A stretch of 64,000 nucleotides of DNA from Amphiscolops sp. MND2022 (taxonomy: Eukaryota), in NCBI GenBank assembly GCA_964187785.1, contig OZ076410.1:19530001-19594000 (forward strand), read 5' to 3'. A model generated the notes under the pieces. The model was not told the DNA's origin. It made no database searches and was given only the letters and a program-made list of their open reading frames with translations. A program made the position numbers and the translations under genes. Shown here in pieces: positions 1,938-64,000 of this stretch (position 1 is its first letter; each line of letters begins with the position of its first letter).

Positions 1938-3410
1938 CTGCATGCATGCAAAAATCAGGGATGTCCATCGATGCATTATCGATGCACATGTAAAATTTAT
2001 CTTAGAGTAAGAATTCATAAAAAATCGTTTCTTCCTGAAAACTGTTCCAGCTCGAAAGAACGCCACTTGGAATGAGTTTTTCGCATTTGTTTAAAAACTT
2101 CGGTCATTAGCTGTGGTGTTTTAAATTTGGCCTAGTGAGTTTGAGCTACAAAAACTTCATACAATTTCTGAAATACAGTTGAAACTTAAAAACCAACCAG
2201 TCTAGATAACTAGATATTCAAGGTTTACCGCTGTAGAACAAAATTTGAACAAAACAGGCGTTTGAAAACATTTCAGAAGGCCACCAAGAAATACAATTGA
2301 AGTACTCTGAAATTGTAGTTTTCAAAATGTGATCCAAATGTTATTCTATTCTTTTCATAGTTGTATATTCATGAATACTGGAACTGATACTCTAGGGTAA
2401 AACAATGAGAATACATGCATTTTGCTTAGCAATTTATTCATGATTGCATTGAAAAACGATGACATCGCACTGAATTTGCCTAAAAATCACAAAAATATGT
2501 ATCATTTAAAGATTTTTTTTGCAATAAAAAACTGTGGGCTGGATTGGATTGACGAAAAGTGTTTCGTGCCAACCATGAACGAGATAAATTGTGCGAGCGA
2601 CGTTTGTTGATAAAAACATTCCAAAAAACAATAAGTAGAAGTAACCTACTCAAAAATTATAGTATCCGACACTTTTCATGAGTAACAACCTTCGATTTAT
2701 TTTTTGGTTCATTTTTTGAAAAAATTTTATTGTCGATTGGTCATCCCTGCATACTATGGAGGCTATCCAGTTAAACACACAAGCGCAAATGGCGTCTCGA
2801 AAGGTGAAATCTTTCACGCCAACCAGACAGATCAGAACGTACCTGAAACGAAAACAAAAGTTAACCTATCTGGAACATTTAACTATACGTATTGATAGAC
2901 AGCTTTTAAAATGAAACAGAAACGTCGATCATTACGATACATATGCCGCAAAAGTGGACTTTATCATCAAGTGTAAAGTGTATTTTCCGTAAAATGAGAG
3001 CGAACCGTATTCTAGTCAAACAGTGCATCGTGTTCATCGCGGATTGTGATGCACTGTGTAATCAGAAATTGCGGATTGTGGTCACTCAGAATTTACTCCT
3101 ACAAATATGAGACGGTGGTTGTAGAACAGAGGACTCCCAGGAAAATTTTAAAGGGATATAAAAACGCAAAACTTGGAGCAAAGTAAGTGACCAAATTTTC
3201 AAAAGTTTCATCACAACTGATTGAGTTCCGCTGCTATTTTCCGTCTTCTTAACTGAATGGTCAACTCTAGTTTTGGTGTGGTTCTCTTTACTTTCTTTCC
3301 GAGAAAATTCAACCGGAAAATTGTAAGCAAGTATTGAACCTAGTTGCTACTTGCATTGTGAGTGGTATGGCAACAGGGGTAAGAGGATTCGAGTTGAACT
3401 ACACCAATAC

Positions 3411-4701
3411 TGTCACAAGCTGCCTCTTGTGATGACAACTAATTGATACCAAATTAGGACGCAAGAAGACAGTACTTCCCCCTCCAGGGGTTTTACCTAT
3501 TTAGACGAAACAGACCTAGCGTCAATTTGACAAGAGTAAAATTGTCGAGAAAACTCATCTTGAAGTCATGAATACTTTATATTTACACGTTTTTATGTTT
3601 TTTTTTTGTTATGAATACCTATCAGTGTTCAAATGCATAAACGAAGACTATACGTTGCAAAGCTAGTCAATGTTGAAGTAATTACAGCAGTTTAGAAGGT
3701 TAACAGTGCTACTTTGAGCTGAAAAGGAAACGCGTTCAACTGGTATTCTGCTCTAGTCGGATTGACGCGTTGTTCGTAATATATTCAGTCAATCAGTTTA
3801 CCAGAAGCAATTCATTAATACTTGCGGTGTAGTCGCAGAAGCTTTCTTTTTTACGTCCACTTTCTGAATACCATGATGAATCTTTGGTTAATATTGGTTT
3901 AGAGCATGTAAACTCATAGTCATGTAATCATTTTTTATTACTCTGTGTGTTTCAATCATGAACCTAATGCCGTTGCTATTTTTAGATCACTCTATTTTCA
4001 TATGTTTTGAGATCCACGATACCCTAATTTAGTCCTGTCATGGTCAATTGGGTATAAATAGCGCCAACTCATCATCGCGATTCATTCAATCATAATACAA
4101 TTCTCACACTTTTTTTACCACAACTAGTTCCTTACTTTGGATTTGGCTAATTCAGTCTTGAATTTCTTTCGTTTTTGTGATATGGATGTTTAAAATATGG
4201 ATGTTATGCTAGAAAAGTTCCCCGATAATGACTTTGCAAATCACCCAGTTGATTGTGAAAGAAAGTGACACAGGGTCAGCTGGACTACAGGAAAATACTG
4301 ATACTTTAGGAGAAGATTTCAGGTGACTACTAAACAGCAGTAGCCATGGGAATAGTGATATAGATGTAAAAAGAGTACGAGTGATTATTGAAGAGCTGAT
4401 TTCCCAGTTCACAAGGAAATTATAGGAAATCAAAAATGGTCTAAACTCTCAGATTTTAGCAGCATTAAACACTGCACTAACGGAGAAGGTGATTCCGGAG
4501 TTACAAGGTAGCATTGGCGTTCTAGGGAACGTGTTAAATACAAATTTTGACCTTCAGTTCGCAGGACTACACACAAATACCGAAGGTATATTGACTAGTG
4601 AGAACACTTCAAGACAGCTCAAAAGGGATGGAAACAGGTAAGCTTAGAGAGCATTAGAGAGGATTCTTTAGACTCAAACACAAGTGATAGAGATTACGAC
4701 A
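3411..4701 (+). mobile_element. Solo LTR (copy 3), old, of the ORF-bearing LTR family
   Basis: Starts TGTCACAAG-CTGCCT-CTTGTGATG and ends ...TTACGACA. Flanks AATAC/AATGC (5-bp TSD, 1 mismatch). Contains AGGAAACGCGTTCAA (3725-3739) and a decayed homolog of the LTR ORF. Confidence 0.8.
4179..4701 (+). pseudogene. Decayed LTR-encoded ORF (gag N-terminal extension)
   Basis: DMDV*NMDVML...GEDFR*LLNSSSHGNSDIDVKRVRVIIEELISQFTRKL*EIKNGLNSQILAALNTALTEKVIPELQGSI aligns by eye with the ORF at 21675-22316; internal stops and a frameshift. Confidence 0.75.
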
Positions 4702-5570
4702 AATGCATGTTTGAAAAAAAGTATAGAACGAAATACTACATCGAAAATTTGACATAAAGTTATGTTGAAGAATTATAGTTTGTCTTGCCAGAAAGAGTCT
4801 GGCGATTCGAATCTAGCCCGTGTCGTTCGTACAGGACTCTTCGAAATTTTGTTGAAAGGTGCTTTTAGTAAACGCGGTATTCCTTTAGAATAAGTTGACG
4901 GTCAAGGCAGACAAGTGTCCACCGAAGTTTTTCATTGTTAGTTGTCTCGGTCACTATGAGATTCAGTTCGGTTGGGAAAACCGTTTTCATGTTGCATACG
5001 GTTTGTTCTGAATCCTAGTTATTGCTTTTGGCAGCCACCACCTTTGGAGCGTGTCTAATTCTGATGAAACGAACAAACTTGCAGCAATCATTTATACCAG
5101 TTCTGTGCGGGTACTTCTACGTCCGACAAACTTTTTTGCTAGGTGCTACCGACATTTAGCTTGCTTCCAGTGATGTCTTTCACTTGTAGGCGCCGCTCGG
5201 TCCCCACTTTGTTGGTGTTGCATTCCCAGTTGTTTCAATTCAATATTCCGATGCTGCGTCTTAGTTTAGATTTCTCCGGTGTCTGTTTGTGGTGTATGGC
5301 AGCTCGGATTGGTCTCAATATAGCGTTTTTCATGGCGAATGAAGCGGGGTTCACGGATCCATTCCACCTGCGCTGGGACAGGTAGTATATCCCGCTTTCA
5401 CGATGTCTTTCCAACGCTGTATTAGGTCTTGAGTCTCGCTCGGGTCTGAGATCCACCAATTACAGGGGGCTCTCTCAGAAGCTTTTATATATTTTTTATT
5501 TCCTTGAACTTATTGTCGATGGTCATCGACGAATGAGAAGTTAATTTCCCCATTACCGCGGGGTGGACAA

Positions 5571-6403
5571 CCCAGGTTTTCGATCTTTGCGATTCTGTGC
5601 AGATCTGCAGAATTTTTGCAGATCTTCGCAGATATGTGCAGATTCGAAGAACATTGATCTAGTTAGAAACACAATAGAAACCCCACAGCAATGTCAAACG
5701 AATAATAAAAAAGTTTAAAACCCGAGAGAAATCTCATTTATGTCAAAATGATGAAACATTTTTCTGCAGCAATCTGTACAGATCTGTAGAGTTTTGCAGA
5801 TCTTTACAGATCTTTGCAGATCCAAACAATAACCAGTATATTACTATAACGTATTCCGAGTTACCAGAAATTATTAAAATTACTTCAACAAACTATGTTC
5901 CCGAAATATTACAACCACAACACTTTATCAACACATCTACCAACCCAGAAGGTTGCCACATGTCAAATTTCATCCGTCAAAACGAAATCAATATGGCAAA
6001 CGAGCCTCTCAAAGTTCAACAATTACTTCTGGAACGTTCGAGTGGAAAGATAAAATACGGTGATTAACCAATACCACGCATTCTCCCGTCACCAAAATTA
6101 CCGTGATGGGGACAAATTTTCCTTCTCGTGAATTTCGCGTGATAGATAGTTTCTCTGATTGAGCCATGGTCAGCTAAAATACTTGCCAAGGTAGTTAAAG
6201 AAGTCCAAAAATGCAGTATATTGGTTCCTTAGAAGCTGCAGAAAAACATATTTCTGCAAAAATCTTAAAAGAAAATCTGCACACTTCTGTAAAGATCTTG
6301 AAGATCTGTATGGATCTTCAAGATTCAGTGCACCGATCTTTGCAGAACCCTGCAGAAAAAATCCTGCAGATCTGCACAGATTCGCAAAGATCGAAAACCT
6401 GGG
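5571..6403 (+). mobile_element. MITE family A, copy 1 (CCC...GGG ends, 2-bp TSD; CACTA/EnSpm-like by inference)
   Basis: About 40-bp TIR CCCAGGTTTTCGATCTTTGCGA.TCTGTGCAGATCTGCAG; flanks AA/AA; many subterminal CAGATCT palindromes. Confidence 0.85.
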
Positions 6404-6976
6404 AAGTCAACAAAACCCAACGTTTATGCAGATTCACATTATTCGACATGACAATTTTCTGTTGGCAAGGTATAAAAACTGATTGAAGAGTACTTATTCT
6501 GTATATTTAGGGATGCACTGATTATACTGTTACATGAATTGCAAAACTGTCGCGAACAACGGCGTCAGGACATCCTCGAGCTGTATAATTACCCAACCCG
6601 GATCAATGACCGCTGTTTCCAGCAGTAATAAGACTGCTGAAACAGGCTCAAAGAAAGCTGGATATTTGAATTTACAAAAATTGTGGGATTTGTGATTGTT
6701 CGCTGTGTAACTTTCCGATAGTGGTTCCGGACGTTTGAGAGCATTTCCCTCCATCTCTGGATTCGACAGGAGTGATAACTTACAAGTTTTCAAAAACCTT
6801 TAACATGGACTTTCATTCCGTACATTTGCACTTCTCAGTCTTAAACAGGTGATAGGTTTTTAGGATTCTCGTCTGAATTTCGGAAACCAGAATACGTTAT
6901 CGTAGTTTTTCGCACATTTCTGCATGGAAATTTATTTCAGCGGGTTGAAGCATTTTGATTATGAAAACGAATAGAA

Positions 6977-7015
<39 letters not shown>

Positions 7016-7234
7016 GGGTGAAATGAGCCTTTAGGTTGAGTACCGAAGGTATAGTGTTTTTTATAATCTTAGAATTGTGTCCATTGTCATAAGATACGAT
7101 CTTAGAATAATGTATTATCTTAGTAAGATCTCAATAAGAATCTTGTCGTGGGTTCCATGGTTGCCAAGATGTGGTAAGAATTTGGTAAGATCTTGCCAAG
7201 ACAGCCAATATGCTAGTAAGGAGATCAACCCGGG
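6404..7234 (+). mobile_element. MITE family B, copy 1, left end missing
   Basis: Colinear with 10280-11087; ends ...GAGATCAACCCGGG; right arm rich in AAGATCTT palindromes. Confidence 0.8.
6978..7016. repeat. (TTG)n microsatellite inside MITE B1
   Basis: About 13 TTG units; the homologous site in B2 (about 10847-10856) has 3. Confidence 0.95.
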
Positions 7235-8538
7235 TTTGCTGATTGTGTGATTTTCTTTGAGACTGCAATAATCTCCATCCGCACGGGATGGCTTTTTTCT
7301 TTGAATTGGTTGATGGAACGCTTGTGTTTGATCAGCGGCATACTCAAGTGTAATGATCAACCTCTCATTTATTTCATTTATTTCCGGGCTCAGAGGACAA
7401 TTCGGTGCGGTTTGACTGATATGTCGCTTTTTATTAGATTCATAACCACGAATCGATTTGCCGATCAGCGACCGAACCTAATATCCCATTAAGCAATTTA
7501 AAGTCCTTTTCCACCTCAAGGATTCTTCCATTCATCCTCTTCAGAGTCGTCGGGCCCCTCTTTGAATGCCGAAGAAACTTATCGGTAAGAACGGTAAACG
7601 TTCAATTACAGGTTAGAGGTAATTAAACAGAATTCAACTACCAAGAAGTTAAGAAGTTAGGATCGTAGTATGTCATTGATGAAATGCTTGAACGGTTCTA
7701 ATGTAAGATTTCCATTCAAAAATTGCTAAATTGCTGAACGTTAGGGATGGTGTTCCCTTCATTTCATGAATGTTTACAGTTATAAATAACTAGAATTCAA
7801 AGACAGTACAATTAGCATCCTAACTTACTTCTTCATAGATTTAATTAACGTTTTTTGTATAGAAAGTGACCAGAAATAACCAAAAAGACACATATTTCAT
7901 CATATTCCACATTTTTGCAAGTTTGTGCACTCGATGCTTGACCTCTAAATTTATCTTGTCGCAAAAATAATTGCATGCCAAAAATTGCTGGTTCTCTGCG
8001 GGATGCTTGTTACTCAATTAGCAACAAGTTTATTGTTCCAATCATCAGCTGTTTCAATCATTGATTGCCTAACAACCGATCTTTTTTTGACCGGACCGGA
8101 CTGCTTTTTCAATTACCATGTACAGCAGATTCCCTCCTTTCGGGTTGAGTGAATTACGTCACAGCATACGTCATAAGAGGTTTTTCTGTTGTAGTTGGCA
8201 TGTAACTCGACCATGTGAATTCGCTTCCCTTTTCATATAACCTTGTATGGTTGCTTTGTTCAAAAACAAAGCTCATATTTTTAGCCTTTACTTGAGTATC
8301 TGAAAGCGTGAAAAGTTAGAGTTGGGGTCTTGGCTGTTAAAGCCCCCCTCCAAAGTAAGTGCGGACAATTTATTTCCGAACTACCCTCCCCGTTGACACA
8401 ATCGATTCGAGATGCAGTTAAGAGTTGAAAATACTGAAATCTGATTGGTTGTTTGACCAATTCAATGATAATTTCACTTGACCGCTTAACTGGGGGGATT
8501 GAATTGGTGGGGGAAATTAACAGAAAAGATACATGTAC

Positions 8539-8602
8539 CAGAGTTGCTTGCTGATACATTCAATGGATATTCGATCAGTGACCTTTTCATCTTTTGTTCT
8601 AT
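8539..8602 (-). CDS. Candidate 64-bp internal exon
   Basis: tttgcag|AT AGA...CTC TG|gtacat. The phase-2 end joins in frame to the 1937 exon (..ISIECISKQL-C-ITVTHF..). Short, with a non-optimal donor. Confidence 0.3.
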
Positions 8603-8985
8603 CTGCAAATTTTCAGTCCGTTCAGTCACACATTAGACCGCTCGCTTGAGTGAATGTTAAATTTCAAATGTTAAACGAATGTGTTTTTTTATTCCCTTCT
8701 CTAGAGCGAAATTGAGAAACTGATTTCCGCAGATTTGCGAAAAAAACTCAAATCAGTCAGAACTAGGAAAATTATGTTAAAACTTGAAAATTTGATTCGA
8801 GTCAGGTGATAGTATTAAGGGAGAAATTTCATCCATTGAATAAATATTTTAAAATGCTGCGAAACTTTAGACTTGATCTTTGTTTTGCTTCGTCCGTAAT
8901 CACAGAGGTTACTGAGACAAGTTAAGAGTACCATTTACCCAACCGGCTGTTTCATCCCTGAACAATCTTTCCCGTTTGATATTAT

Positions 8986-9260
8986 GGTTACATGTCAGAA
9001 TATCCTAAGTCATAATAACCAATGCCATAATAGCCAATGCCAAAATATCCAAGGTGACAAAATAGCCAATGCCAAAATAGCCAACGTGACATAATAGCCA
9101 ATGTTATAGTGTCACTTTGGCTGTTTTGGTATTGTCTTATTTCGCATTGGCTATTTTGTCATTGGCTATTTTGGCATTGGCTATTTTGGCATATTGGATA
9201 TTATGGCATTGGCTATTTTGACCTTGGCTATTTTGACTTTGGTTATTTTGTCCTGCCACC
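8986..9260. mobile_element. Foldback MITE with 15-bp periodic arms (Mutator/Foldback-like by inference)
   Basis: Left arm AATAGCCAATGCCAA-type repeats, right arm TTGGCTATTTTGGCA-type repeats; ends GGTTACA...TGCCACC; flanks TGATATTAT/TGATTTTAT (9 bp, 1 mismatch). Confidence 0.8.
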
Positions 9261-9450
9261 TGATTTTATATGCCAGTCGAATCCACATATCAAAGTTGAA
9301 TAGCCATTTTCATTGGAAATTTCTCATAAAAATGGCCATGCATTCAACTTTGGTATGTGGATTCTAGTTACATTAATGTAACTACTAGTGCGAATTCAAA
9401 CAGGAATTATGGATTCAACATGTATATAATACTTCTTTTACATATACAAC

Positions 9451-10082
9451 CCCATGTTGAGCTTTCCTTGAGAATCTGTACAGATCTGTGAGCCTTTTTT
9501 CCTTGAGGATCTGTAAAGATCGTTCCACTGCTACGTAAGGACAACTGCAGATCTGCAAGGATCTTCACAGATGTTCAAAGATTTTCGGCACAGATTTTTC
9601 AGGAAAAGTTTTTGGGAAACAATGTATTGCATTTTTGGGCTTCTTCAACAAGTATTTTTGCTGACCAAGGCTCAGTCAGTTGAACGTCTCCATCACTCAA
9701 AATTCTTGAGTAGGAAAGTTTGTCCCCATTACAGTAATTATGGTGTCTGGGAAATTTGCACGGTAGTTTATCCATTTCACTTGAACTTTCCAGAAGTGGT
9801 TGTTCAACTTTGAGATGCTCGTCTGTCATATTGACTTCGATTTGGCGGACGTAATCAGACATGTGACCACTGTCTGAGTTGGTAGAGGTGTTGATAAATT
9901 GATGTGGTTGTAGTTTTTCGGGACCATGGTTTGCTGGAGTAGTTTTAGTAATTGCTGGAAACTTGGATTACGTTATAGTAATTTATTTGTAATTTTTGAA
10001 TGGTTAATTTTTGACAAACCCTGGAGTTTCTGTCAGGATCTGTACAGATCTGTACAGATTCGCAGGGAGTGCTCAACATGGG
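9451..10082 (-). mobile_element. MITE family A, copy 2
   Basis: TIR CCCATGTTGAGC...GCTCAACATGGG; reverse complement of 14812-15631; flanks AAC/AAC; CAGATCTG arrays. Confidence 0.85.
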
Positions 10083-10084
10083 AA

Positions 10085-11087
10085 CTCGGGTCGACCCTCC
10101 ATGGATATCTTAGTAAGATCTTGGCAAGATCTTGCCAAGATCTTGGAAAAACCTTAGCTAAGATCTTGTCAAGATATTGGCAAGAATTGCAAGATGTCAT
10201 AGTAAGATCTTATCAAGAGAGCCATGTTCCCAAAAAAACTTTTATTGTAAAATCCTATTTGGAAAAAAAATATGAAAGGAAGCCTACAAAAATCAACATT
10301 TCTGCAGATTTATATTGTTAGACATTAAAACTTCTGTTAGAAATGTATAAAATTTGATTGAAGAGAAATTTATTTAGGAAGACTCGTTAAATTGTTCTTT
10401 CAATTGCAAAACTGTCGCCAACAACGGCGTCAGAGAAGCCTTGAGCTGAATCATTACCCAAATTAGAGCAAAGACCGCCGTTTTTAGCAGTAATAAGGCT
10501 GCTGAAACAGGCTCAAAGAAAGCTGGAATTATGATTTTTACAAAAATTTCCGGACTTTAAGGTCTTTCCTTTGTAACTTTCCGATAGTGGGTCTGGACGT
10601 CTGAGAGCATATTTCTCCGTCTCTGAAATCGACAAGACTGATAAATTACAAGTTTTGGAAAGCCCTTGAAATGACGTTTCATTTGGCACATTCACATTTC
10701 TCAGTGTTAAACAGGTGAGCAGTTATTAGGATTCTTGTCAAAATTTCGGAAACCAGAATACGTTATCGTAATTTTTTACGCATTTTTGCATTCAAAATTT
10801 TTTCAGCAGGTTTAAGCATTTTGATGATGAAAACGAGTAGAAATACTTGTTGTTGGGTGAGATGAGCCTTTAGATTGAGCCTCGGCTGCTTGTACCGAAG
10901 GTATAGTGTTTTTTTTATCATCTTAAAATTTTGTCCATCGTGATAAGATACGATCTTGGAATATGTATTAGCTTAGCAAGATCTTTATAAGAATCTTGCC
11001 ATGGTATCCATGGTTGCCAAGATGTAGTAAGAAGTTGGCAAGATCTTGCCAAGACAGCCAAGATGCTAGTAAGAGGGTCAACCCGGG
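10085..11087 (+). mobile_element. MITE family B, copy 2 (complete)
   Basis: Ends CTCGGGTCGACCCTC / GAGGGTCAACCCGGG; flanks AA/AA; both arms are arrays of CAAGATCTTG palindromes. Confidence 0.85.
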
Positions 11088-11504
11088 AAAACTATTATTT
11101 TACAATCACTTGCCAAAAAATGCTCGCATTGTGCAAAACTGTTTTGACCCAATTAAAAATATTCACTGTCACTGAGTCCTATGTTGTCGCTAAAATACTT
11201 CAGGGCAGAAAGTACCGCGGTGCTTAGTGGGCGCCTTGGCCGCTGTATGATCATTCGCATGTGCTTCTCTCAATCGAAAATCTAAATTGTTAGCCATTAT
11301 GCAGCAAAAAGTTAATACTAATTGAGAAGGTTTTTTGAACCAGCGTGATATTCTCAGTTTCAATGCTAACTGGAAATGAGAAAAGGCGGAACAAAAGACG
11401 AGTTTTTTGTTCACATCCGAATTGATCAGAGTCAATTTTCCCCCGCTGATAAGAAACTATAGAGGAAACTGTATATACACTTATATATAAAACTTATATA
11501 TAAT

Positions 11505-11660
11505 GGTACCATAAATTCCTTGCCAAGATCGTGGTTAACCAGTTACCCTTTGCACGATCTTCTATGGTCATGGATTCCTTACCAAGATCATGGCAAGATC
11601 TTGTTAAGGATTGCTATTAACTTGTCATGGATCACGGCAGTCATGGCTTCGAACACTGGG
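11505..11660 (+). mobile_element. Right-end fragment of MITE family C
   Basis: Ends CATGGCTTCGAACACTGGG as at 19823-19842; CAAGATC motifs. Confidence 0.7.
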
Positions 11661-12369
11661 TGAACAAATTGATCTAACTGTAACAAGTTGTTTGCCTTGT
11701 AGCATTTTCGCGTTTCTGAAATTTCAAAATTAATGTCTTCTTTTATCCTTGTGCGATGAAAGCTGTCTCTTTGTAACCGTTGGATTAAATTATCATTATG
11801 CATTAATGTTACATCTAGAAAAACATTGTTATGTTTTCATAGAGTCACATACAGGGAACACCATGGCTCCATGCGAATCCTGCACAGAAACTGGATGAAT
11901 TTATTCCATGGAACCGTTTGTCTCCACGCAATGAAGTGCATGGAATTGGATCCGGGTAAAAACTGTCATCAATGGGGTGCAAATGTTTATCATGAAAATG
12001 CGGAGATTCAAGATCATTTGTGTAACTTTTTTCGAAAGCAAAAACAAAGAAAAATTGTCGTGAAAGAGCGATTAAAGTTTTACTCACCTGATAATACAAT
12101 CATGGCTCTCAATAATTTTTTTTACAAATTTTTGAAAAAAATCAATCTTACAACCAAAATGAGAAATGAAGTTTCGTTAAACAGTTGAAGCTCAATTCCA
12201 GAAGGCTCCTTTGGGGTACCTACGAATTGGTGTTAATTGAAATCCAATTAACCGCCAGCGATGATCTATCAATGTCCATTGCAAAAAGCTGAGGTTTCGA
12301 TAGATCCATTGGAGTCTCGCTACGTGCAGTATTCATCAAGGGCATCAAGCGATAGATACTTCAAGCGCG

Positions 12370-12490
12370 CCCTTGTTGAAACTGCTTGAATTCTTTACAA
12401 GTGTTTGTAAGTTGTCAAGCACATTCTTCATGATGATCCTATGAAATCAACTTACAAACACTTGTAAATTATTCCAGCACTTTCAACCGA
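12370..12490. mobile_element. Miniature hairpin element related to family D
   Basis: Perfect 21-bp inverted repeat 12394-12414 / 12448-12468; left end CCCTTGTTGAAACTGCTTGAA resembles the family D terminus. Confidence 0.6.
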
Positions 12491-13179
12491 CGCGAGTTCA
12501 ATCTCTCACGGAAACTTGCATGCTTCAAAAAATCGCTGTTTCATTTGACTCTTAACAAGCTACCTAAGATGTATCCTAAATTTCGCGGCATTTTGGAGAC
12601 ATGCAGTTTTACCAGTTTTAGTATGCCCCAGTTCGATTTTTGGAAGTAACAAACTCTTTCCAACTTTACACCTAGTGAAAAATGGACGAATAGATTGCCG
12701 GAAAAAACTGTCGTGAAAATTGCTGTTACTCATAATGTAGAAAAGAGTGCTCTAAAAGCGTACCGTGGTTTTTGCTTCAAAGCTGATCTTTCCCCATGCA
12801 ATGCGCTCTGAACTTGGTCAAAAATAGTTGTGAATCTTTGACATCCCAACTTGATGTGCTGATGAAACAAAACTCTTGCCGGATGAAATTCTGGATAAAG
12901 TTCCTGACTAGACCTAAATTTAGAATGATGTAATGTAGACATTTGCAACTTCTCACCGATTGCGGAAGTTTAACAAAATTGAGACATGACATTGTCCTAT
13001 TTCAGCTTGATTACCAAAAAGACTTTACACTATACACAGATCTCTCTCTTTTACCTAACTAAGCTACATACTTATAAGATTGTACTTATAAGATTCATGT
13101 TTTTAAATATATTTTTGTTTGCTCGTATGCGTAATCTAAGTCACTTTTCGAAATTATTATATTTTTGTTCGGTCTTTGG

Positions 13180-14760
13180 TTATTTCTATCGATATTAATA
13201 TTTCATTCAAATTTGGCATGTGTGGCATGGCAGCTATTATTCGGTGTTTGGGAATCCAGAGCAGTCTTTACCGGTTCTTCGTTCTTAATTGTTTTGTTTA
13301 CAGGGAATACAAATATTCTCGATTAATGTGCTTTTCCAGTTCCGAGTGCCTAGATTGAACTAGTTTTTGCAATTCCTTTGCGATTTCTTGAAGGTGTAGC
13401 TGTATCGGTTTGGCCTTTTGCTTTATTGGGTAATATTTCGGTTTTAATTGAATATTGGTTTCGCTGTCTTCCTTTGTGTTGTTTTACTTATTCTTTTTTT
13501 TTCAGGTCGGTTGCTTTCGTCCAATCGGACGCTTCCCATTGTTAATTGAATGGTTAACGTGTCCATTCCGAGTAGTTCTATCGATTCTTTCCGTGATCAG
13601 GTGTCGCTGTTTCTATTTGTTGTTTTCGTAATCAATGCTTACCGGTGTTTACCCGAAACTTTATGTCATTCTTGTTCACATCTCAGTATAGGTTGTTTAC
13701 TATATGTATTTCCCTTTCTCTCATGATATTTTCAGCTGCCGGGATAATTCAAGTGAGTGATCCGGAGTCTATCGTAAATTATTTTTGTTGATGTAGTTTA
13801 TTTTAACTCTCGCTGTTAAATCCTTGTTTTTTCCACTAGTCGAGTGCTCTTCTCAAGTCTGTAAATAGTTGGTTCTGATTCTTTCGTTTCTTCCGGTTTC
13901 TCTGGTTCTCGGTTACATTTTGTATTATCGGTTTGTATGTTTCGTTTTGGTTACCTACTGTTGCGAAATGCCCCTTCTTGCCGGATCTGTTTCATGTTTG
14001 ATCTATTTCAAGGGATTTGTCTGTTGAATTCTAGGTTTAGTTTGCCGAATAGGAACATTTGCATGAATTTGATTTTTGTGTCTGTTTTGATCCGAAGCTT
14101 TTTACTTTGTGAATGGCTTCCTCTTCTATATTCTTCTCTTTGTTTGAGAATTATGTTTCATGTATTGTGTTTTTGTTGTTCCTCTTTCGTATGTGTTTTG
14201 TTGTATCATTTCCACGATCGTGTTCATCTCCGTCCATTTTTCCCATCCATTGATTTGTCTCCGATTTTCGTGTCCGCAATTGAGGTCATGAATTTTGAGA
14301 GTAAAAAGTTTTGGCTCTGATGCTTTCGAAGTTACCTTCTTTTCTTTTTCTGTCAATATCCGACAAAAGTACTCTGGTGTTTCCGATTCAGCCTGCTCAG
14401 TCCAGAAGATTTTTCAACAATTATGATTTTTTGGTACGAATGAATCATTGAATTGTCGGATCAAATCTTTGATCGTTATTTGGTCCTGCTCTGTTTTATA
14501 TTCTGTGCGTGTCTTTTGCTACAGGGCTTCCGGACCAATACCCCAAATGAACTCCCCCTGGAATTTCCATTCCTTTCCGTCCAAACCGTTTTGAGTCATT
14601 TCATTTCCTTTTATTTTTTTTCAAATATTTCTACTTTGTATTTTCCTTTGCGTACTGTGTAGACCTCTCCAGCCCTTGTTTTGGGGAAAACATCATTTTG
14701 CCTTCGTTGGCTGTTGTTTCAAAGTTTGGTACTTCGATCTTTTATTCTCGTGCCATCTGA
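13180..14760 (-). mobile_element. Degenerate Ty3/Gypsy gag-protease-RT(start) fragment
   Basis: Minus-strand relic frames: gag-like FIWGIGPEAL...IKDLIRQFNDSFVPK (about 14550); retropepsin IDSGS (13759-13773); RT N-terminal KELQKLVQS...PHMPNLNEIL (about 13200-13390). Many stops and frameshifts. Confidence 0.7.
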
Positions 14761-14811
14761 GGTTTTTTCTTGTGTTTGTTCCGATATAACAAAATTTTGT
14801 TCGGTAATCTT

Positions 14812-15631
14812 CCCATATTGAGCACTCCCTGTGAATCTGTACAGATCATCTGTACAGATCCTGACAGATATTCCAGGATTGTTTGAAAATTGAATAGTCA
14901 TAAATTCAGTTTTTGAAAATGGAATTAGTTGTTTAAAAAGTGCTCTACGAAAGAAATACGCCCCTTATTTGAAATTTTTAAAAACAATTTCTGTGCGAGT
15001 CTGTACAGATCTGTACAGATCCTTGCAGATATTCCAGGATTTGTTAAAAATTAACCATATGAAAATGACCATTAAATTACTATAACGTATTCCGAGTTTC
15101 CAGTAACTACCAAAACTACTCCAGCAAACCATGTTCCCGAAAAATTACAACCACAGCACTTTATCAACACCTCTACCAACCCAGACGGTTGACACATGTC
15201 AAAATTCATCCGCCAAAACGAAGTCAATATGGCAAACGAGCCTCTCAAAGTTGAAAAACCACTTCTGGAAAATTCAAGTGAAATTGATAAATTACCGTGT
15301 ATAACCAACACCGAACATTCCCCATACACCAAAATGACCGTGATGGGACAAAATTTTCTGCTCAAAAATATTGAGTGATGGAGAGTTTCAACTGACTGAG
15401 CCTAGTCAGCCAAAATATTTACTGAAGTAGCCCCAAAATTAAATGCATAGGTTCACTATAAGATCCGGAAACAGTTTTCCTGAAAAATCTGTTCAGAAAA
15501 TCTTTGAACATCTGTAAAGATCCTTGCAGATCTGCTGTTGTCCTTACGTAGCAGTGGCACGATCTTTACAGATCGTCAAGGAAAATTGGCTCACAGATCT
15601 TTACAGATTCTCAAGGAAAGCTCAACATGGG
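14812..15631 (+). mobile_element. MITE family A, copy 3
   Basis: CCCATATTGAGC...GCTCAACATGGG; flanks TT/TT; left arm partly duplicated (about 14826-14900 vs 14998-15070). Confidence 0.85.
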
Positions 15632-19971: not shown

Positions 19972-20669
19972 TAGTTGCATAAATATTGCATGAATTGATA
20001 GAACTCTTTTTATAACTTTTGACCTTTTATAACTTTGCTAACTTGGAGAAAATCTGCAAGTTTTGAATCAATTAGCTACCGTCGTAGTGAAAACCGTCGT
20101 AATTTGAAACAATACGACCGCCGAGTTCCGGTATAATTCACGCCTGACTTACTTTTGCAACGACGTAACTTGAACAGCTCGAGCTTAATGACTAAATGTA
20201 TACCAGCAACAACCTTCGCAACTTGTAGATGCCGGCCCAAGCTCCGACACTGTATTTCCACAGCAAAGTATGGCACCATTTTTGCAGCCAAGCGGTGAAA
20301 CAATGGTCGACTTTCAAAGAGACTTGCTCAAGGTCACAAATGTCTGACTGCTGTCCAATGTTCGTTAGGTTTCTACGCAAAATGTTTAGTGCATCCTAGT
20401 ATGCTTTCAGTTTGGACATTTTTTTCAAAATTTTCAGTATAGTGCTCAGTATTAGTGCTAGATCAAGCGAGAACTAAAATTTGAAAGGTCTCAAATCAGC
20501 ATTTTTAGCATTTTTTTCGAAATTTAAAAATTTCCTTAAAATTGCCTGGATTTTTTCCAAACATTTTCTAGACTGCAGCCAAATTTTTTCAAATGTGCAT
20601 GGATCTGCTCAGAGGATTTTGCAGGTTGCATGGAAATTTTTCAAAATTTTTCCATGCATGATTTCAGTT

Positions 20670-22316
20670 GTCACAGGCTGCCGCCTGTGACGGGAATTAT
20701 TATCAAATTCCCCAAGAATATGTAGAATCCAACCCCCCACCCGGAGTATTGCCAATCTGAAAGACTTACGGTAAAACAATTCAAAACTATGTTTAATCTT
20801 ATCCCAATAGTGCTATTTCATATTTTTACCGTGGCGGACCTGTGGTCCACACGGCTACATCTTAGTTTTCATTTTTACCTTACGGGAATATACTTAATTG
20901 ATGAGTCCTGTGCCTGTTTGATTGATTGAATGAATTTGTAATATAGTCAATTGAATGTAAAATAATACGAACAATGCTTGCTGAATACTAGGAAACGTGT
21001 TCAAATGAACGCTTGTTGACCCCCAGCGTACGTACCGGCCTTATTTAAATAAACCAATCAGAGTGCTGTACATTCTTATCATTATTGCTGTAGCCACGTG
21101 GACCGAAGGTCTACCGCGGTGTTATTAGCTGCCAATTAGTCGATGCTATTATGTTTACTGTAGCCGTGCGTACTGTCAGTCCGCGACGGTTACTACTATT
21201 TAGAGCTGCAATTTAAATATGCTGATGTAGTTACTCGAACCTTAAGTCTATTAGTACAGTAATAATGGACGATTTGTTTGTTATGATACTTGTCAGACAT
21301 GAAATATTAAAGTAAACATGTAACTGTTTAAAGCAAAATGTGCTTATTTTAGAACTAATATCACATTTACAGACCATTGGTCAATCCCTCCATTTCACCC
21401 TGATGCTATATTTAGCTGCAATTTGATGTAGTAATATTGACGTCATGTATCAAAATATAACCCGGGAGCTATTATTAGTAACATGACCAGCATAATTTTG
21501 CGGGTCATGCAGTGTGAAGTATATATAGCGGGGACCCGTAGGCACCAGGATGATTCTTTCTGATTTTATGAAACTATCAACTATATACACTGCTGATTCA
21601 ATTTGTTACGTTGCGAGACTTATTTGAATAATAGACCGTTTGTCAATTCATTATTAATCTCCAAAGTTTGTTCAATGCCATCAACAAGGAGACAGAAAGC
21701 CAAAGAGAGACGCTCTAGGCAATTGGACATAATGTCTGATGTAGAAAATGTTGATATAATGCTTGGAAGTTACTCTAGATGTGATGAAGAGAATAACATT
21801 AGCGAAAATGAAGGGAATTTGGATTCAGGGTCTAGTAGACCACAACAAAGTTCAAACGTTATAGGAGAAGATTTCGATCTTTACTTAATACTAATAGTAG
21901 GGAAAACAGCGAAATCACAATTGAGACCACTAAGTTGATTAATGAGGAAATTTCAAATCAAATGTCTAGAAAACTCAATGAGGTCAAAACTAGCTTAAGT
22001 TCTCAAGTCCAGGAAGCTATCACAGCTGCAATAACAAATACAGTGCTTCCGGCTATTCAAAATACACTAGAAACGCAGGGGAGACTCGATTTCACCATGG
22101 TGGACCGAGGGTCCAACGGGCCACATCTAAGCCCAAGGCCGACCGATTTCACCATAAGGGACCGAAGGTCCAGTGGGCTACAACGGAACGCCGAAGTTGG
22201 AAATGCTCAGAAATCGTGGGAAAATCGTCCCAGAACTTGCTTTACACAGGAAAATACTAGACTGAGGTCTAGAGAGAGTTCAACAGACTCTAATAATAGT
22301 GAACAAATTCACGACA
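20670..22316 (+). mobile_element. Solo LTR (copy 1), 1647 bp
   Basis: TGTCAC...ACGACA with perfect 5-bp TSD TCAGT (20665-20669 / 22317-22321). Terminal hairpin, AGGAAACGTGTTCAA (20990-21004), CCAATC, TATA-like at about 21520. Confidence 0.9.
21675..22316 (+). pseudogene. LTR-encoded ORF of about 214 codons with a single 1-nt frameshift
   Basis: MPSTRRQKAKERRSRQLDIMSDVENVDIMLGSY...GEDF(shift at about 21876)RSLLNTNSRENSEITIETTKLINEEISNQMSRKLNEVKTSLSSQVQEAITAAITNTVLPAIQNTL...SEQIHD; joins track ORFs 21603 and 21935. Confidence 0.8.
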
Positions 22317-23497
22317 TCAGTATTTTTTTATGTTTTTCAAAAATTTAGAATGTACGCATAGATGCAACATGGAAAATTTTCCGGCACGTTCGACTAGGGT
22401 ATGCTCTTTCTCTGTCTTTTTTAGAGGCTAAACTGTATCAGTGTTTATATTTATGTTTATACTTTTGATATTTGCATCTAAAGAAATAAACTTTTCGTTC
22501 TTTAGAAAAGCAGAAGTTCTTATTCGGCGCCTACCCAGCGGAATTGTGGAACTAAACTTTTTTGTTCGCTGGCAATGAATCGGTATTCAATATTTACACT
22601 GCAAATCACTTCGCCTTGATTCTAACTTGTACCCAAAATGACTGGTTTTGTTGGGGGGGGGGTCATTCTTTACAAGGTCAGGTCTTCAGGGAAAAAGAGT
22701 CAAGATTGGGGAGGGTTTCTATCCTTATTGTGTTCATGCCGTTTCATCAGAAAACTAAACTTTCTTGAGTTTAGTTTTCTTCAACTTCCCCAAAAAGTTA
22801 AAATTCTTCCGCTTTTTGATTTCGTTCATTGTTTCTCAATTCTTTGTCACTCAAGTCACGTTGTACCAAACCAAATTGAAATCTGAACCGTATTTCTCAT
22901 TTTCAAGCGAGTCAAATTCCACGGCTTTTCCATTTCTGTGCAAAAAAGTTTGCAAATTCTTTTTTTGGCGGGCTGACAATTTTGTCAACTTTATTTATAC
23001 ATCAGCAGATGATGTTTGTCCTTATTTATGCCCCAAATTTGTGCTATTCATCTATTTTCATCTAGCACTTTTTGGAAAAGAGTGACGATTTTTTCGCGTT
23101 TTTGTTATCTTTTGTGGCGTCCCTTTTTCTGTTCAATTTGTTCCTTTTAATGATATCTATAAAAGACTATGTAAAGGCATCTAAAAGTAACTTTTTCGGG
23201 TTGAAAATGGCTTCTTATTAGCTCTTTTCTCATTTTATGATATTGCGCTTTCCACACCGTTAATTGCTACTTTCAACACGATAATCCCAGTGAAATTTCC
23301 CCTGTTACGTAAGTTAATCACATGGCTAGCACTAACTATTTTTCTTGTTTAAAGGGTCATAAAATCCATCAGGTTTGTATTGGGCAGATTGGAATGCGGA
23401 TCTATTGAATTAGAAAGTTTTGGAGACCTTTGCCACCTTTGAAGTTATTTTGATGAAGATGCAAAAAGAGAATTATTACAAGAGTAGTATTTACTTT

Positions 23498-40021: not shown

Positions 40022-40465
40022 GGTTACAGGTCTTTAATACCAGAGGGCAAAATACCAGAGGTCGAAAGGCCAGAGGTCATAAAACCACAGAGTCAAATTA
40101 CCAGACGGTCAAAATACCAGTTAGAATCGAACGATTGCGTAATTTGAGGGCCCTGTTTGAATACGCGTCTTGGAATTGACTAGCGTCTTCACTTCAATTG
40201 GATTTGCTTGCAAACTTTCTTTGAAGGTTGCCGCTTTTGAAACAAAAGTACCAGTTGCATTAGTGATGTCAATTAGACTGTTGTTCGAAAGCGTCCTTTT
40301 ACAGACTAATCAACAATAGTTAAGTGTAAATCATACTTCGTTGTACATTACTTTGTTTCTTAATTCTCTAGTATTTTGACCGTCTGGTATTTTGACTCTG
40401 TGGTTTTATGACCTATGGTCTTTCGACCTCTGGTATTTTGACTTGCGGTATTTTGACCTGACACC
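40022..40465. mobile_element. Foldback MITE with roughly 100-bp TIRs built of 15-bp units
   Basis: Left GGTTACAGGTC..(GTCAAAATACCAGA)n, right (TCTGGTATTTTGAC)n..GACCTGACACC; flanks GAGATCTG/GAAATCTG (8 bp, 1 mismatch). Confidence 0.85.
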
Positions 40466-56345: not shown

Positions 56346-57677
56346 GGAGTTTCTCTAAAAAGTGGCATTCCATATATAAAAACTCCCATACCGTTTTAGT
56401 CAAGCACTATTGGCTATCTATAGGATGAACAAGGCTTTGCCGAAGAATGGAAAACAATTTTGATGGTAAAAGTTGATGGCTATTTGGCACTTCCATAAAG
56501 CCTGGTTTTGGGACAACATCATTTTTCGAACAATAGATAATCTCGTTTTAATAGATATTTAATGAATCCATATAGAGGATTTTTCACAGGGTATTTTTTT
56601 CAAGCAAATCTTGATGACGAATAAAAGACAAATAAAACATAACGTTCGAAGATGATGATTTTTCATGGACCATTCAAAATTTTCCAACTTTCCTGCGACG
56701 ATATGCAATAAAGGATTTTTCTTACCTAAGCAAGCATTAGTGGAAGATTCAGGTTGACGCGCTTTGTTATATCATGTTACTTGCAACAAATGATATGAAA
56801 ACATGTTGATTGTATTCAATACAGTAATACAGTAAAGAGAAGGAAAATTCAATAAAAAGAGTTCAAATGAAATTGCTACGAATCTGAGATCATTGCATCA
56901 TAGCCAGATCCTTCCAGAAAGATTTTCGTTTCACGGGAGACTTCATACCAACGTAATTGTGTTAATTCCTACCCGCATATTCTCTGTAAATTACATAAAT
57001 CATTTTTAAATGAAAAAGTATATCATCGAGAAACTCATTGTTCTAATTGTAGATTCAATTGAAATAAAGAAACTGATTGTCAGTGAACACTCTATTCTCG
57101 TCTGCAGAAAGGTTTAAAGGTAACTGAATAGATCAACGTTTACAATGTTACTATATTTTCATAGACAGGTACTACGCTGCCAAAAGATCAAATGAATGTA
57201 TTGCGGTGGGATTGATTGACACATAGACATTTGCATGTCACATTTCCCCCGCAATCTGAACAGAAATTTATATAGTAACCAAACAAAACATTAATTTTTA
57301 TGAACTGTTTTAACAGTTTCACCGAATAAGCGAAGATGCCTAAAAACGGTTGTTGTGGAACACCGAATGAGCCAATTGTTTTTCTCGGGTTTTCTCCTAT
57401 GTTTTCCGTTCTTTTTCGTCTGAGGATTGTGACAGTTTCGCCCTGTCAAAAAACAAAAAAAAATGAATCTGAATTAGGATGATGATAAGCTAATAGTGCT
57501 TGGTAGCCTATAAAATCATGTAAAAGTTTCAAGCAGTTTCAACTAGGGTAGCTTACCGGTTAGCGGAAATCTTAACTGGTCCAGGCGCTAGTTCTAGAGC
57601 ATATCAACATATTGAATGTATTTTTAAACACAAAAGTTTAACATCCATGCATCTTTCATGTACATACATTCACATAC

Positions 57678-58111
57678 CTGTTGATTGCGATTGCAAGCAT
57701 GGATGTTGTTGATGCAACTTCCAAGAAAAACGTGAGAGCGAAAATGAAGTCGCTGTTGTTCTGATTGCATTTGATAGCCTCCGAAGGGAAAAGAAACGAA
57801 CAAGCTATGAGACAAATAAAGGTCAGATTCAGCATCAAAAGGTCAGTGGGCACTCGGATGACAGTTTCTCTCAACTTATTACATAACACCATGACCACCA
57901 TAAGGTTGGTGGCTGTGCCAATCAGAGAAGAGGTTGCGTAACAAAATGACATAACGGAGCACTCGCTTTCGTTGAAATCCAGAAAAGTTTCGAATGCACG
58001 AGGCACAGATGTTTTCGCACCTCTTGTCGATGGTGTGAAATTGAAGGAGGAGTTAACAAGGGTTGAATTTTGGTGGGAATCATTCATATTGAAGAAAAAA
58101 TCAGAATTCAT
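57678..58111 (-). CDS. First coding exon of a class A (rhodopsin-like) GPCR, TM1-TM3
   Basis: N-terminus with several N-X-S/T sites; TM1 LIGTATNLMVVMVL; TM2 LLMLNLTFICLIAC..FP; extracellular Cys; TM3 ASTTSMLAIAINR. A consensus donor AG|GTATGT splits the Arg codon of NRY. The exon end is inferred and downstream exons were not found. Confidence 0.85.
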
Positions 58112-60089: not shown

Positions 60090-61814
60090 TGTCGCAGGTT
60101 GCCGCCTGTGACAAAACAAGGCTTACGACTACAGTGAGCAGACAGGATTTTGCCCCAGGCACATTACCGATCTACTAATACTGGGAACTGATGAACATTT
60201 AGTTACACAAATTTTCAAGTTATTTTAATATTTTGACACACTCATTTCCCATTTTATTAGTCTGTTAACTTTTGCTGGGTGATCAATTTTACTGTAAATG
60301 CAACGCAAAGATTGATGATTGTAAATTGAAAGTAGAATACTATGCAGTATAAAGGAAACGTGTTCAAAAACGCAAATGTCCTTTCACTGCCTCATATCTT
60401 ACTATGCAATGATCAACCAATCACAGCGCAGTATTTGTGGTATCATTTTAAAGTATCACTCCAAGATGCAGGTAACGGCAAATTGAGTCAATAAAGCTAC
60501 TATTTAGATGAAGCTAGTCAAACGGCCGGTTTCGGCCAATTCATCCTTTCATTAGATACGATGTGCTGTTTAGCTAATCATAGTACGCCTTTGACCACAG
60601 AGTATCTAAATTGACTCCTTTCATGCACTATTACGATTAAAAGACGTAGAATAATAGTTTGTTGTTTGTTGATGCTATTTGTAATAAACCAGTATTTGAA
60701 CAGATTCTAGCAAAGCCTTTATGGCCAACCTTGCGTATAGTGGCCAATTCAGGCCGTTTTAGTGCGAAGCCCAAAATATGTAAAATCCCAAACTAATGTT
60801 AATCAGATGTTCACCTGGTTACTTAAATTGGCACGTGCTTAGGAATAATGTCGCATACTTTAATTACCTTAGTTACAGTTGTTGCTTGGATCATTGTAAT
60901 TGTTTACCGTCGAGGAGCTTATTTTCTTCGAATAAGTTTGTAGAGCTTTGAGTTAAATTCCCTGAATGCTTTGATGTAGCTAATCAAGTGCAAAACCAAT
61001 GATGATATCTATTGTGTGCTATTGATGATACTCACAGGTAATCTTGGGATGTTAATATTTAGTGAAACTCTAAAAAGTGGATGTCTTTCTCAGCAATATA
61101 TATATATATCTGTACCTTTCCCGAAAGATACACAATTTGATATACCTTACTGACGTTCACAAACTTGGAAAATACTACTTTTCCGATATAATTCAAATAT
61201 TAATATTGGAGCTTCTTTATGCCTACTACAAGAAAGCAGAAAGCGCAAAGCTAGAATAGCAAGAGAGGTTGACATGTTATCGGACATTGAAAACCCAGAC
61301 ATAATGCTAGGCGGTAAAAATCTACAGAGAAAAGAAAGTGAAAACAGCAACTCTGTTCTTGGGCCTGAAAGTCCTAGTTATAATGCATTGGTAAACAACG
61401 ACGTGAAAACTCACTCTAACTCTAGAAAAGAAGAGATTAGGGGATATGCCGGAAACGATCAATACTCGAGAGACTCGAGTGACGTTGACTCTGGTAGTGA
61501 AATATAGATAAGTCAGGCTATTTTCAGAGGATTTGAACAAGAGGATCACTCAAGAATTGAATGATATAATGAGTAGCGTGAGCTCAAAATTTCAGAGAGC
61601 TAAAAGTGAGGCCAGAAACGAACAAGTCTTGCCGCAGATTCAAGCTACCCTAAGGTCCTGACAAGGACAAGCGCCTGATAGAGGATGAGAGGTCCCGGGC
61701 AGATCAACGGAAGGTAGATCTGAAGAAGCTCTAAACCAAAAAACAAGAAGTAATTCGAGAGATGAGCTTTCTAGAGACTTCAATAGAAACGAAGACTTAG
61801 AGAAACTCATTACA
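60090..61814 (+). mobile_element. 5' LTR (copy 2), 1725 bp
   Basis: TGTCGCAGG-TTGCCG-CCTGTGACA start; AGGAAACGTGTTCAA (60353-60367); CCAATC; decayed ORF from ATG 61219 (MPTTRKQKA..MLSDIENPDIMLG..VLPQIQATL); ends CATTACA before TGG. Confidence 0.8.
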
Positions 61815-62943
61815 TGGTAACAAGAGACAACGAATTTTCAAATCCTGTTCCCGAGTTTCTCACGGAACACATCCCACCTCGAACGGTACTTAATCAGTCC
61901 AACTGTGATCATAATGATGCCCTTGATACGACACTACCGGCTCCAGAACAAGACCCTCCATTGGCCGCACAAGACCCAATTCATAGACTAGCCGATGTAC
62001 TGCCTAGCCTGCAGAACGGACCTTCAGCCCAACAACAACTCAACATCCGCCCAGTCGATTCAAATGCAGAAACTCGCGCTAATCGAGAATTTTTTCCACA
62101 CGATGATCAAGATCCAACCAGAGATGGCGGAACAGATGAAGATCAACCATGTAAATTCTCTCCTCCGCAAGGCTGCGCTACAAACGTTCCGAAACATCAA
62201 TACAAGCAATAGACAAACTCTTGAGGACGTATTGGTAATCTTCCGACGAAAGTATGTCAAACCCGAATCCCAAGCGACTGCCAAACACAAATGGCACCCC
62301 CTGGTCTTTCACCACAATACGATGAAGATAGTGGATTTTCTCGAGGAGTTGAACCAAGGAGCAGAAAAAACATTCAGCGAGAATGCCCAAAGCATGATAG
62401 ACAGTCTCCTCTACGCGAAGTTATCCCCAAAACTCAAAAGAACAGTCAACATGGCCCGACTTGAGAGTGATTCCTATAAGGAAATTGTCGCCCATCTTGA
62501 GAGGAAATTGGAGCTTAACGCTCGCGAGGGATTGGACGACTTGCCAATGGCAACCTGGACTTCTTCAACATCTAAGCCCAAAAACCTTCTCTTCAATCGA
62601 CTACTCAATGATACCGTCTGCAAAGATTGCAGGTAAAAATGTCATTTGGTCAAAGACTGCGAGAAATTCAGAATGAAAAAGGAAAAGGATGCACAGAAGG
62701 GCAAACGAAATCAGCAGAAAATCTAACATGAGTGTGGAACTTGTGGCAAGAAAAATCACCCAGAAGAACGATGTTGGCAAGGAGCAGGTGCACATCTCAA
62801 GCCTTAACGTACCAGGCCTGAAGACACATCGAACAGCAATCCGGAATCCAAAGCACCGGAAGCTCACCATAACGCCACGTCGTCCAACGCCCAGTCCACA
62901 TCAAAAAGGACGATTAAACAAACTAATTTCGCCACGACTCTAA
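61814..62943 (+). pseudogene. gag: Frameshifted gag (capsid-like domain plus two CCHC knuckles)
   Basis: MVTRD..; FRRKYVKPESQATAKHKW...DFLEEL...LYAKL; CKDCR*KCHLVKDC (about 62618) and CGTCGKKNHPEERC (about 62732). Confidence 0.85.
61815..61826 (+). promoter_or_regulatory. Primer-binding-site-like sequence
   Basis: TGGTAACAAGAG immediately after the inferred LTR end; primer tRNA not assignable by eye. Confidence 0.6.
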
Positions 62944-63539
62944 CACCACCATCTAGTATCAGTCCGACAATATGTCAGATCTGATCCTGCAACTAAAATC
63001 ATTCACGAATACCAACAACACTTGATGGGGTATCCCTCTGTTGTCTGGCAGCAACAGATGGAAAAAGCAACTATTATCACGTATCATAACAGCCATTTGT
63101 ACCAAAAACCAAATCCCATTTGGGACCCTAACTACACCACAAACTTTACCACCCGATTCAGGACCACTCCCCTCATCGATGACTACAACCCGACATACAT
63201 CGATCCATACTATGGCAGAGACCCCCATGAAATCTACTACCAGGACTTGCTGCAATTCCAACACAACCTTGATGATATTGAAGTCTACCAGAGATCAGCG
63301 CACGAAAGACCTCCAACAACGCAAAACAAGAAAATGAGAGTACTTATCGAAAACTGGCAAATAATTGACGGGACAAGTCATTCCGTCTTCCCGAATCCTT
63401 AGGGAACTGAGAACAATGAGTCTACAGCAGACACCGTACCTCAGTCCCTATTAGATGAAAAACAATTTCAAAACAATCTCGTCAGCGAAGAAGGTGAACC
63501 TGACTGTATACCACTCCCTACCATTACCATTCTCAAATG

Positions 63540-63900
63540 CAAGATACGCATGCTGTACTCCCCAATGGACTTTGGGGAACTATCCATTGACGGCCTGATT
63601 GACACTGGTGCCTTGTCCAATGGCTACTTGCTCCACGATCAGTTATCCCAAAAGGTCCTCCTCCAATCTTCCAGATAATGGTCGCTAATGGACAATCAGA
63701 AACCCCTAAAAGTAACATTGAATTGAAATTCGAGGTTGGTGACATAGAGTTCCATGAACTCTTCAACATAATGGAGACTCTAAAGGTACAAACAATTGGA
63801 CTATTGTTTCTTCAGAGAAGTCATACAGTACTGGATATGGGACAAGGCATCTTGAATTTCCCATTCTTCTCGATGCAGCTCACACGGTTGACCATCTATA
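63540..63900 (+). pseudogene. pol: Retropepsin (start of pol), frameshifted; element continues beyond the window
   Basis: GLIDTGALS (63592-63618) and C-terminal IGLLFL..ILNF; style typical of Ty3/Gypsy proteases. Confidence 0.85.
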
Positions 63901-64000
63901 TTCCAATGTCCTTGAACCATTGCTCAATCCTACCGAAATAATCATTCCGCCGAATGACAGAGTCCTCGTGACAGAGTCCCAACAGTATCCTGAAAATCAT

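Follow-up and report, generated by a model that had tools for sequence, protein, structure and literature searches.

A predicted hairpin in the first bases of U3 in Ty3/Gypsy elements: pairing kept across families and a possible part in setting the plus-strand start

Why should a long terminal repeat (LTR) begin, from its very first base, with a sequence that folds back on itself? The question is raised by the window, the 64,000-nucleotide stretch of DNA from Amphiscolops sp. analysed here, in which the first-pass annotation described a covarying hairpin at the first base of three LTRs and proposed a selected structure next to the polypurine tract (PPT) and the integrase attachment (att) site. 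The three hairpin sequences are indeed present (a degenerate pattern of the motif hits no other site in the window apart from a reverse reading of copy 2, and 100 shuffles put the expected number of hits at 0), and each stands at the first base of an LTR, two of these being solo LTRs with target-site duplications (TSDs) and the third a 5' LTR followed by a primer-binding site (PBS). The features of the window are the following:

3411..3434, + strand: LTR-initial hairpin copy 1, with A:T at pair 8/17 and a 6-nt loop
3411..4701, + strand: old solo LTR, TG...CA, with a near-perfect 5-bp TSD, AATAC (3406-3410) and AATGC (4702-4706), and a decayed gag start within it
20669..20692, + strand: LTR-initial hairpin copy 2, 10 bp, loop TGCC
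20669..22316, + strand: solo LTR with a perfect TSD, TCAGT (20664-20668 and 22317-22321)
20671..20760, + strand: C-terminal tail of ORF3 within U3 of the 20669 LTR, SQAAACDG...PGVLPI and a stop, with homologous tails known
21675..22316, + strand: N-terminal gag fragment within the 20669 LTR, reading frame broken
60090..60113, + strand: LTR-initial hairpin copy 3, with G.T at 5/20 and 10/15 and A at 24
60090..61814, + strand: 5' LTR of a decayed Gypsy element, PBS directly after
60092..60178, + strand: ORF3 tail within U3 of the 60090 LTR, SQVAACDK...PGTLPIY and a stop
61815..61826, + strand: PBS TGGTAACAAGAG, with 2 mismatches against the family PBS complementary to tRNA-Leu(CAG)
61827..64000, + strand: gag in fragments and the start of pol, from the decayed element of the 60090 LTR

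Several details of the original description have to be amended. Copy 2 starts at 20669 rather than at 20670, the G-C to A-T change placed in copy 3 belongs to copy 1 (3411, pair 8/17), and the uniform 9-bp stem with a 6-nt loop becomes, upon RNA folding, a 10-bp stem with a 4-nt loop in copies 2 and 3 and an 8-bp stem with a 6-nt loop in copy 1 (z of -4.5, -2.6 and -2.1 for copies 2, 3 and 1, respectively). Nor is the loop nearly constant, since position 11 is a purine in 517 genome copies and sister families carry other loops. Rfam yields 0 matches at gathering score within the window, and none of the three LTRs there is a 3' LTR, so that the PPT is not visible in it. Support for a selected structure comes from data at the level of families, not from the three window copies themselves.

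The elements that bear the motif constitute a Ty3/Gypsy lineage of ~14 kb, primed by tRNA-Leu, in which the hairpin makes up the first 24 bases of the LTR. A degenerate 22-mer has 4185 matches in the 1.07-Gb genome (0 in the control), often paired on the same strand ~14 kb apart, and 6 such pairs turned out to delimit LTR retrotransposons whose repeats measure 1.15-1.8 kb and have TSD-type flanks. Membership of Ty3/Gypsy is indicated by the order of Pfam domains in pol (PR-RT-RH-IN) and by paired LTRs that are 95-100% identical, run from TG to CA and are bordered by 5-bp TSDs, and the use of a host tRNA by a PBS with 12 nt complementary to the 3' end of tRNA-Leu(CAG), CCA included; a PBS pattern for other tRNAs occurs at only 2 sites. 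While gag, pol, LTR ends, TSD and tRNA PBS are shared with Ty3/Gypsy elements of the Metaviridae type that have extra ORFs, the lineage described here differs from them in a gag that begins within the LTR, in antisense ORFs, in a sense accessory frame (ORF3) that ends ~86 nt into the 3' LTR, and in one large clade that has no PPT. Among the matches listed for reverse transcriptase (RT), all 120 homologues are unnamed ENA proteins. The 24-mer is also found in three metagenome contigs, two of which encode a divergent ORF3 and match the loci sampled from this genome over short DNA stretches only, and the arrangement of hairpin and ORF3 likely extends beyond this genome. As a separate observation, many of the 960 matches to the T-arm and acceptor end of tRNA-Leu lie in a tandem array with a period of ~236-296 nt (G000:C8:35587800-35636165 and beyond), and ARAGORN called no tRNA gene on a stretch of this tRNA-Leu-like array (L053).

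The covariation attributed to the stem holds in one respect and not in another: pairing is kept across families, but within the clade of the window copies, hereafter the main clade, covariation is weak. At pair 8/17 the copies comprise G:C in 4920, A:T in 364 (counted with a slightly looser search pattern than the other states), G.T in 203, A.C in 95 and a purine at position 17 in 161; T17 goes with A8 in 364 of 459 copies and with G8 in 203 of 5123. The gag tree, the sample for which was enriched for mismatch classes, calls for 9 changes to account for the A:T state, and independent contrasts for this pair on the same tree (3.5 the same way, 0.1 the opposite way, median p 0.25) are not significant. 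Young copies without the stem, which the first-pass annotation had named as evidence against selection, exist in part, as single broken pairs at 96-99.9% LTR identity, the rest of the stem being kept. Broken pairs present in both LTRs of young families include A.C at 8/17 (LTRs 99.9% identical), C.T at 5/20 (in a family with many paired LTRs), A.C or T.C at 9/16, and G.A and A.A at 8/17, while G.G at 6/19 (L155, L156) and A.C at 4/21 (L321, L323) recur in separate copies. The stem tolerates about one mismatch.

Sister families were sampled independently of the motif, by a genome search for an LTR end plus PBS that gave 7449 sites; 76 of the first 100 were taken, leaving out those already sampled by motif. 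LTR starts were set by 5'/3' alignment, by multi-copy boundaries or, for some main-clade copies, by the best motif match. The terminal stems of these families include TCGCATC/GATGCGA, TCATG/CATGA, TCATGAT/ATCATGA, TCATACC/GGTATGA, TCATGC/GCATGA, ACGACC/GGTCGT, CAGTCCG/CGGACTG and TCACAGC/GCTGTGA; the loops span 3-9 nt, and the RT of these families is 47-95% identical to the main-clade query. A sister clade with T:A at 8/17, C:G at 9/16 and the peptide LSHPSRCDG keeps the stem as well. Among ten Gypsy elements fetched before their LTR start was known, a TG start could be assigned to 6 (L310, L382, L387 and L405 remained without a settled start), of which 5 have a terminal fold. The comparisons use folding energy; a stem score anchored at base 3 without bulges misses bulged stems (L289, L391, L288, L377, L308). 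In 24 of 28 LTRs, the stability of the first 30 nt places them in the top 10% of windows, a figure not corrected for GC content. Against composition-preserving shuffles with TGTC fixed, p is at most 0.05 in 6 of 12 Gypsy groups (combined p 2e-7) and in 1 of 11 BEL/Pao LTR starts (combined p 0.04), both combined values being generous in that the groups share ancestry and independence is overstated; the two sets differ in a Mann-Whitney test (p 0.002). The BEL/Pao control drew on 20 loci; L482 and L485 were dropped as repeats rather than LTR starts, L483 as a duplicate family, and so were L478 and five loci that lack an LTR pair. In 19 chosen rows, bases are paired in 93% of cells and both partners have changed in 3 pairs, although the number of doubly changed pairs among these hand-picked rows is not above that in shuffles. 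Judged by predicted folding, many Gypsy families in this genome begin their LTR with a fold-back in which the letters differ and the predicted pairing is kept. On sequence grounds the hairpin is real, more widespread than the first-pass annotation could know, and less strictly covarying than it claimed.

At 3' LTRs, a canonical PPT abuts the hairpin in some families, whereas in 9 of the 26 main-clade families purine runs within the last 12 nt upstream of the LTR never exceed 2 nt. The paired LTRs of these PPT-less families still end exactly at TG and have 5-bp TSDs, and in all 7 such loci at least 51 nt separate the 3' LTR from the nearest upstream purine run of 8 or more. Other families have a short G-rich run, and distant ones range up to a canonical tract (L285, L404); families with a canonical PPT keep the stem too. 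The possibility that the hairpin is a graded compensation for a weak PPT was rejected, as its stability does not correlate with the purine content of the PPT (Spearman 0.18, p 0.55, 13 groups) and as BEL/Pao PPTs in the same genome also contain C (e.g. CAAGGCGGGCGGTA), with no strong stem there (L469-L488). A splice acceptor at the pyrimidine-rich junction was likewise discarded, several families ending in CTG and not CAG. Three further observations concern these regions. Pyrimidine-rich coding sequence occupies the 30 nt upstream of element-strand position 1501, before the 3' LTR, in one clade without a polypurine tract (L003, L006, L009, L016, L021, L024 and L260), whose LTRs nonetheless have exact TG ends and TSDs. 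In metagenome contigs L467 and L468 the 24-mer lies at the same place in the divergent ORF3, with short G-rich tracts just before it. Among the BEL/Pao loci L469-L488, one family carries a palindrome of 12 bp over LTR nt 6-17, and short TTCA/TGAA pairing occurs in several.

What, then, may the structure do? To our knowledge, only plus-strand initiation and integration depend, in the standard replication scheme, on where U3 begins; a structure locked to base 1-5 therefore most likely serves one of the two. Between them, a role at the primer junction is favoured because the variable sequence and length of the stem suit a fold better than a protein-bound dyad. The preferred reading, which we put somewhat below an even chance, is that the first 18-27 bases of U3 form a predicted, selected and mismatch-tolerant stem-loop, the 5' arm of which is the terminal integrase site of the LTR, and that this stem-loop would help to mark where the plus strand starts, at the junction of PPT and U3. 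In the wake of minus-strand synthesis, the U3 RNA immediately 3' of the primer, the minus-strand DNA, or both, would fold on themselves and leave the hybrid, and this would provide an RNase H cut and a free primer end at TG with no need for a canonical PPT sequence. As to the strand that folds, RNA energies favour neither (p 0.51) and those computed for DNA lean slightly towards the minus strand (p 0.03), and the clues from mismatches are mixed, in that G.U states are common but plus-strand A.C states also exist. A stronger proposal, and one that we regard as rather improbable, is that a highly successful Gypsy clade primes its plus-strand DNA without any polypurine tract, the terminal U3 hairpin providing the structural cue for where RNase H cuts and where the LTR ends, and the primer region having thereby been freed to become coding sequence of an accessory gene.

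The stem might instead act at the finished cDNA end, with integrase or an accessory protein encoded by the element (the ORF3 product or an antisense protein) binding it as a double-stranded dyad or a frayed-end hairpin. The att site and the 5' arm are one and the same stretch, the specificity of integrase is reported to sit in the terminal 8-15 bp (PMC3601003), the main-clade dyad runs through the loop, with some loop variants making it perfect (G11, which is common, and A14), and the folding energy shows no strand preference. Nevertheless, stem sequence and total length (~18-27 nt) vary by family, which is ill-suited to a single dimeric sequence-specific binder, and the U5 end, which is an att site as well, has shorter stems in 12 of 15 groups. 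A role at the cDNA end is held to be possible but unlikely.

To a similarly low degree, the hairpin may be an RNA-level element apart from plus-strand priming, either one that sequesters the U3 att sequence (the U5 end and the PBS core GTGACA are both complementary to it) or one engaged in packaging, dimerisation or strand transfer. Plus-strand states compatible with G.U pairing are common at 1/24, 2/23, 5/20, 7/18 and 8/17, and Ty3 employs 3'-end sequences and palindromes in tRNA bridging and dimerisation (PMC11381356). On the other hand, young families also contain plus-strand A.C states, and G.T at 5/20 and 2/23 could come from C-to-T decay at CpG. Complementarity to the primer tRNA, moreover, shows no excess at any of the 13 LTR starts tested: pairing with this tRNA, as in a bipartite PBS of Ty3 type, had been suggested by eye from a 7-nt identity and a 5-nt loop match, but the duplex energy of the first 30 nt of the LTR with the tRNA is no better than that of shuffles (13/13).

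The presence of ORF3 offers an explanation without any selected structure, in which integrase fixes the 5' arm, the Cys-Asp-Gly codons of ORF3 fix the 3' arm, and the palindrome is coincidental. The 24 nt of the hairpin double as the ORF3 codons (V)SQAAACD(G), the frame reading on into the 3' LTR, in a register in which third codon positions pair with third positions at 2/23, 5/20 and 8/17, and every tested pair can be broken singly. An ORF across PPT and U3 is reminiscent of HIV nef. ORF3 itself (429 representatives at E<=0.001) is exemplified by L034:4348-5148 (+), which has an acidic N-terminus, a CxxC and two helices, and which crosses the PPT site. With pN of 0.40 against pS of 0.81, and dN/dS of 0.18 and 0.26 in two unsaturated pairs, it looks like a real gene under purifying selection, and across 20 ORF3 families no column is invariant except V, S, Q, A and C of the motif. 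ORF3 has no Pfam family (best E 0.063) and no fold match in PDB; together with a hydrophobic stretch that is C-terminal and a low-confidence model (pLDDT 55), this led to the rejection of a signal-peptide or env protein. The motif is also constrained at the nucleotide level, because its synonymous divergence (0.45, in a sample partly chosen by motif patterns) is below that of the flanking ORF3 codons (0.81 and 0.76), a depletion that speaks against a coincidental palindrome. In L301 and L318 a stop follows right after Val-Ser, so that there is no read-through ORF and the stem, still present, is not explained by one; other stem-bearing families encode other peptides, and double changes keep the pairing (9/16 is G:C in 10 and C:G in 7 of the 19 chosen rows). 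Coincidence, to which we assign a small probability, appears largely refuted for the lineage as a whole and may still account for the stasis of the main-clade sequence. Separately, an apparent same-frame ORF runs through the LTR start at the 3' LTR junctions of L296/L317, L289, L313 and L291/L376, with unrelated peptides (e.g. VSCQHDG, LSQPHLSCE).

The least probable reading, and an improbable one, takes the palindrome for a by-product of mutation, left by template switching (quasi-palindrome correction) as the element is reverse transcribed. In its favour, one arm or half-loop is often found repeated in the other among variants. In the standard replication scheme, however, errors in the plus-strand strong-stop U3 end up in the 5' LTR, and the U3 of that LTR does not pass into progeny RNA by transcription; mismatches, moreover, persist through whole families, BEL/Pao starts give little signal, and the LTR terminus is an outlier in stability relative to internal U3 windows.

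The preferred reading, a fold that helps to define the plus-strand start, can be set beside three known systems. The inverted repeat of Sirevirus (Copia) elements (PMC2829016, PMC3601003) is likewise a predicted stem exactly at the PPT/U3 junction with a proposed role in reverse transcription, but its left arm lies upstream of the PPT and its loop holds the PPT and the att site. Here, both arms lie inside U3 nt 1-27, the 5' arm is the att site, the PPT is outside or often absent, and an ORF overlaps; a left arm upstream and a PPT in the loop are not found. The Conserved Hairpin Site of the fungal GalEa Copia elements shares with the Gypsy hairpin a short stem at an LTR boundary, the absence of a canonical priming signal and a function that is inferred only, but it follows the 5' LTR, replaces a missing PBS and concerns minus-strand priming (PMC5445492), while in the present lineage the PBS is intact and the stem stands at the start of U3, beside the plus-strand primer site. 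The retroviral U5-IR stem-loop of Rous sarcoma virus, as cited in PMC5445492 and PMC3601003, also overlaps the integrase attachment end beside a priming site; it belongs to the U5/PBS end and to minus-strand initiation, and the Gypsy hairpin occupies the mirror position at U3. By analogy, the Gypsy hairpin plausibly works like these three structures even though its geometry fits none of them. In the literature searched, the scope of which excluded most subscription papers and supplements, no hairpin wholly within the start of a Gypsy U3 is described; PMC3601003 asks that other LTR elements be searched systematically for such hairpins.

The choice of the plus-strand primer by RNase H is still called elusive in PMC3362945, and HIV-1 is crippled, with integration blocked, on loss of the G-tract of its PPT (PMC13332604). 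The families described here offer a comparative system for the selection of this primer, as they include recent, precisely ended copies with a pyrimidine-rich junction and form a series that runs from families with a canonical PPT to families with none, all of them with a terminal stem. Annotation is concerned as well: programs that require a PPT to call an LTR are expected to miss or downgrade such elements.

Other features of these LTRs and of the window were seen in passing. Main-clade LTRs have a conserved U3 motif, GGAAACRYGTTCAA, ~240-420 nt from their start, followed by CAATCA (window ~3727, 20991 and 60355), which is a possible promoter element. At 57656-58111 on the minus strand, an ORF resembles, as judged by eye, the N-terminal part of a seven-transmembrane receptor. 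Finally, several dispersed repeat families, with inverted arms (MITE-like) and tandem units of 11 and 15 nt, are found at 5563-15631, 17093-56300 and 8986-9260 / 40036-40452.
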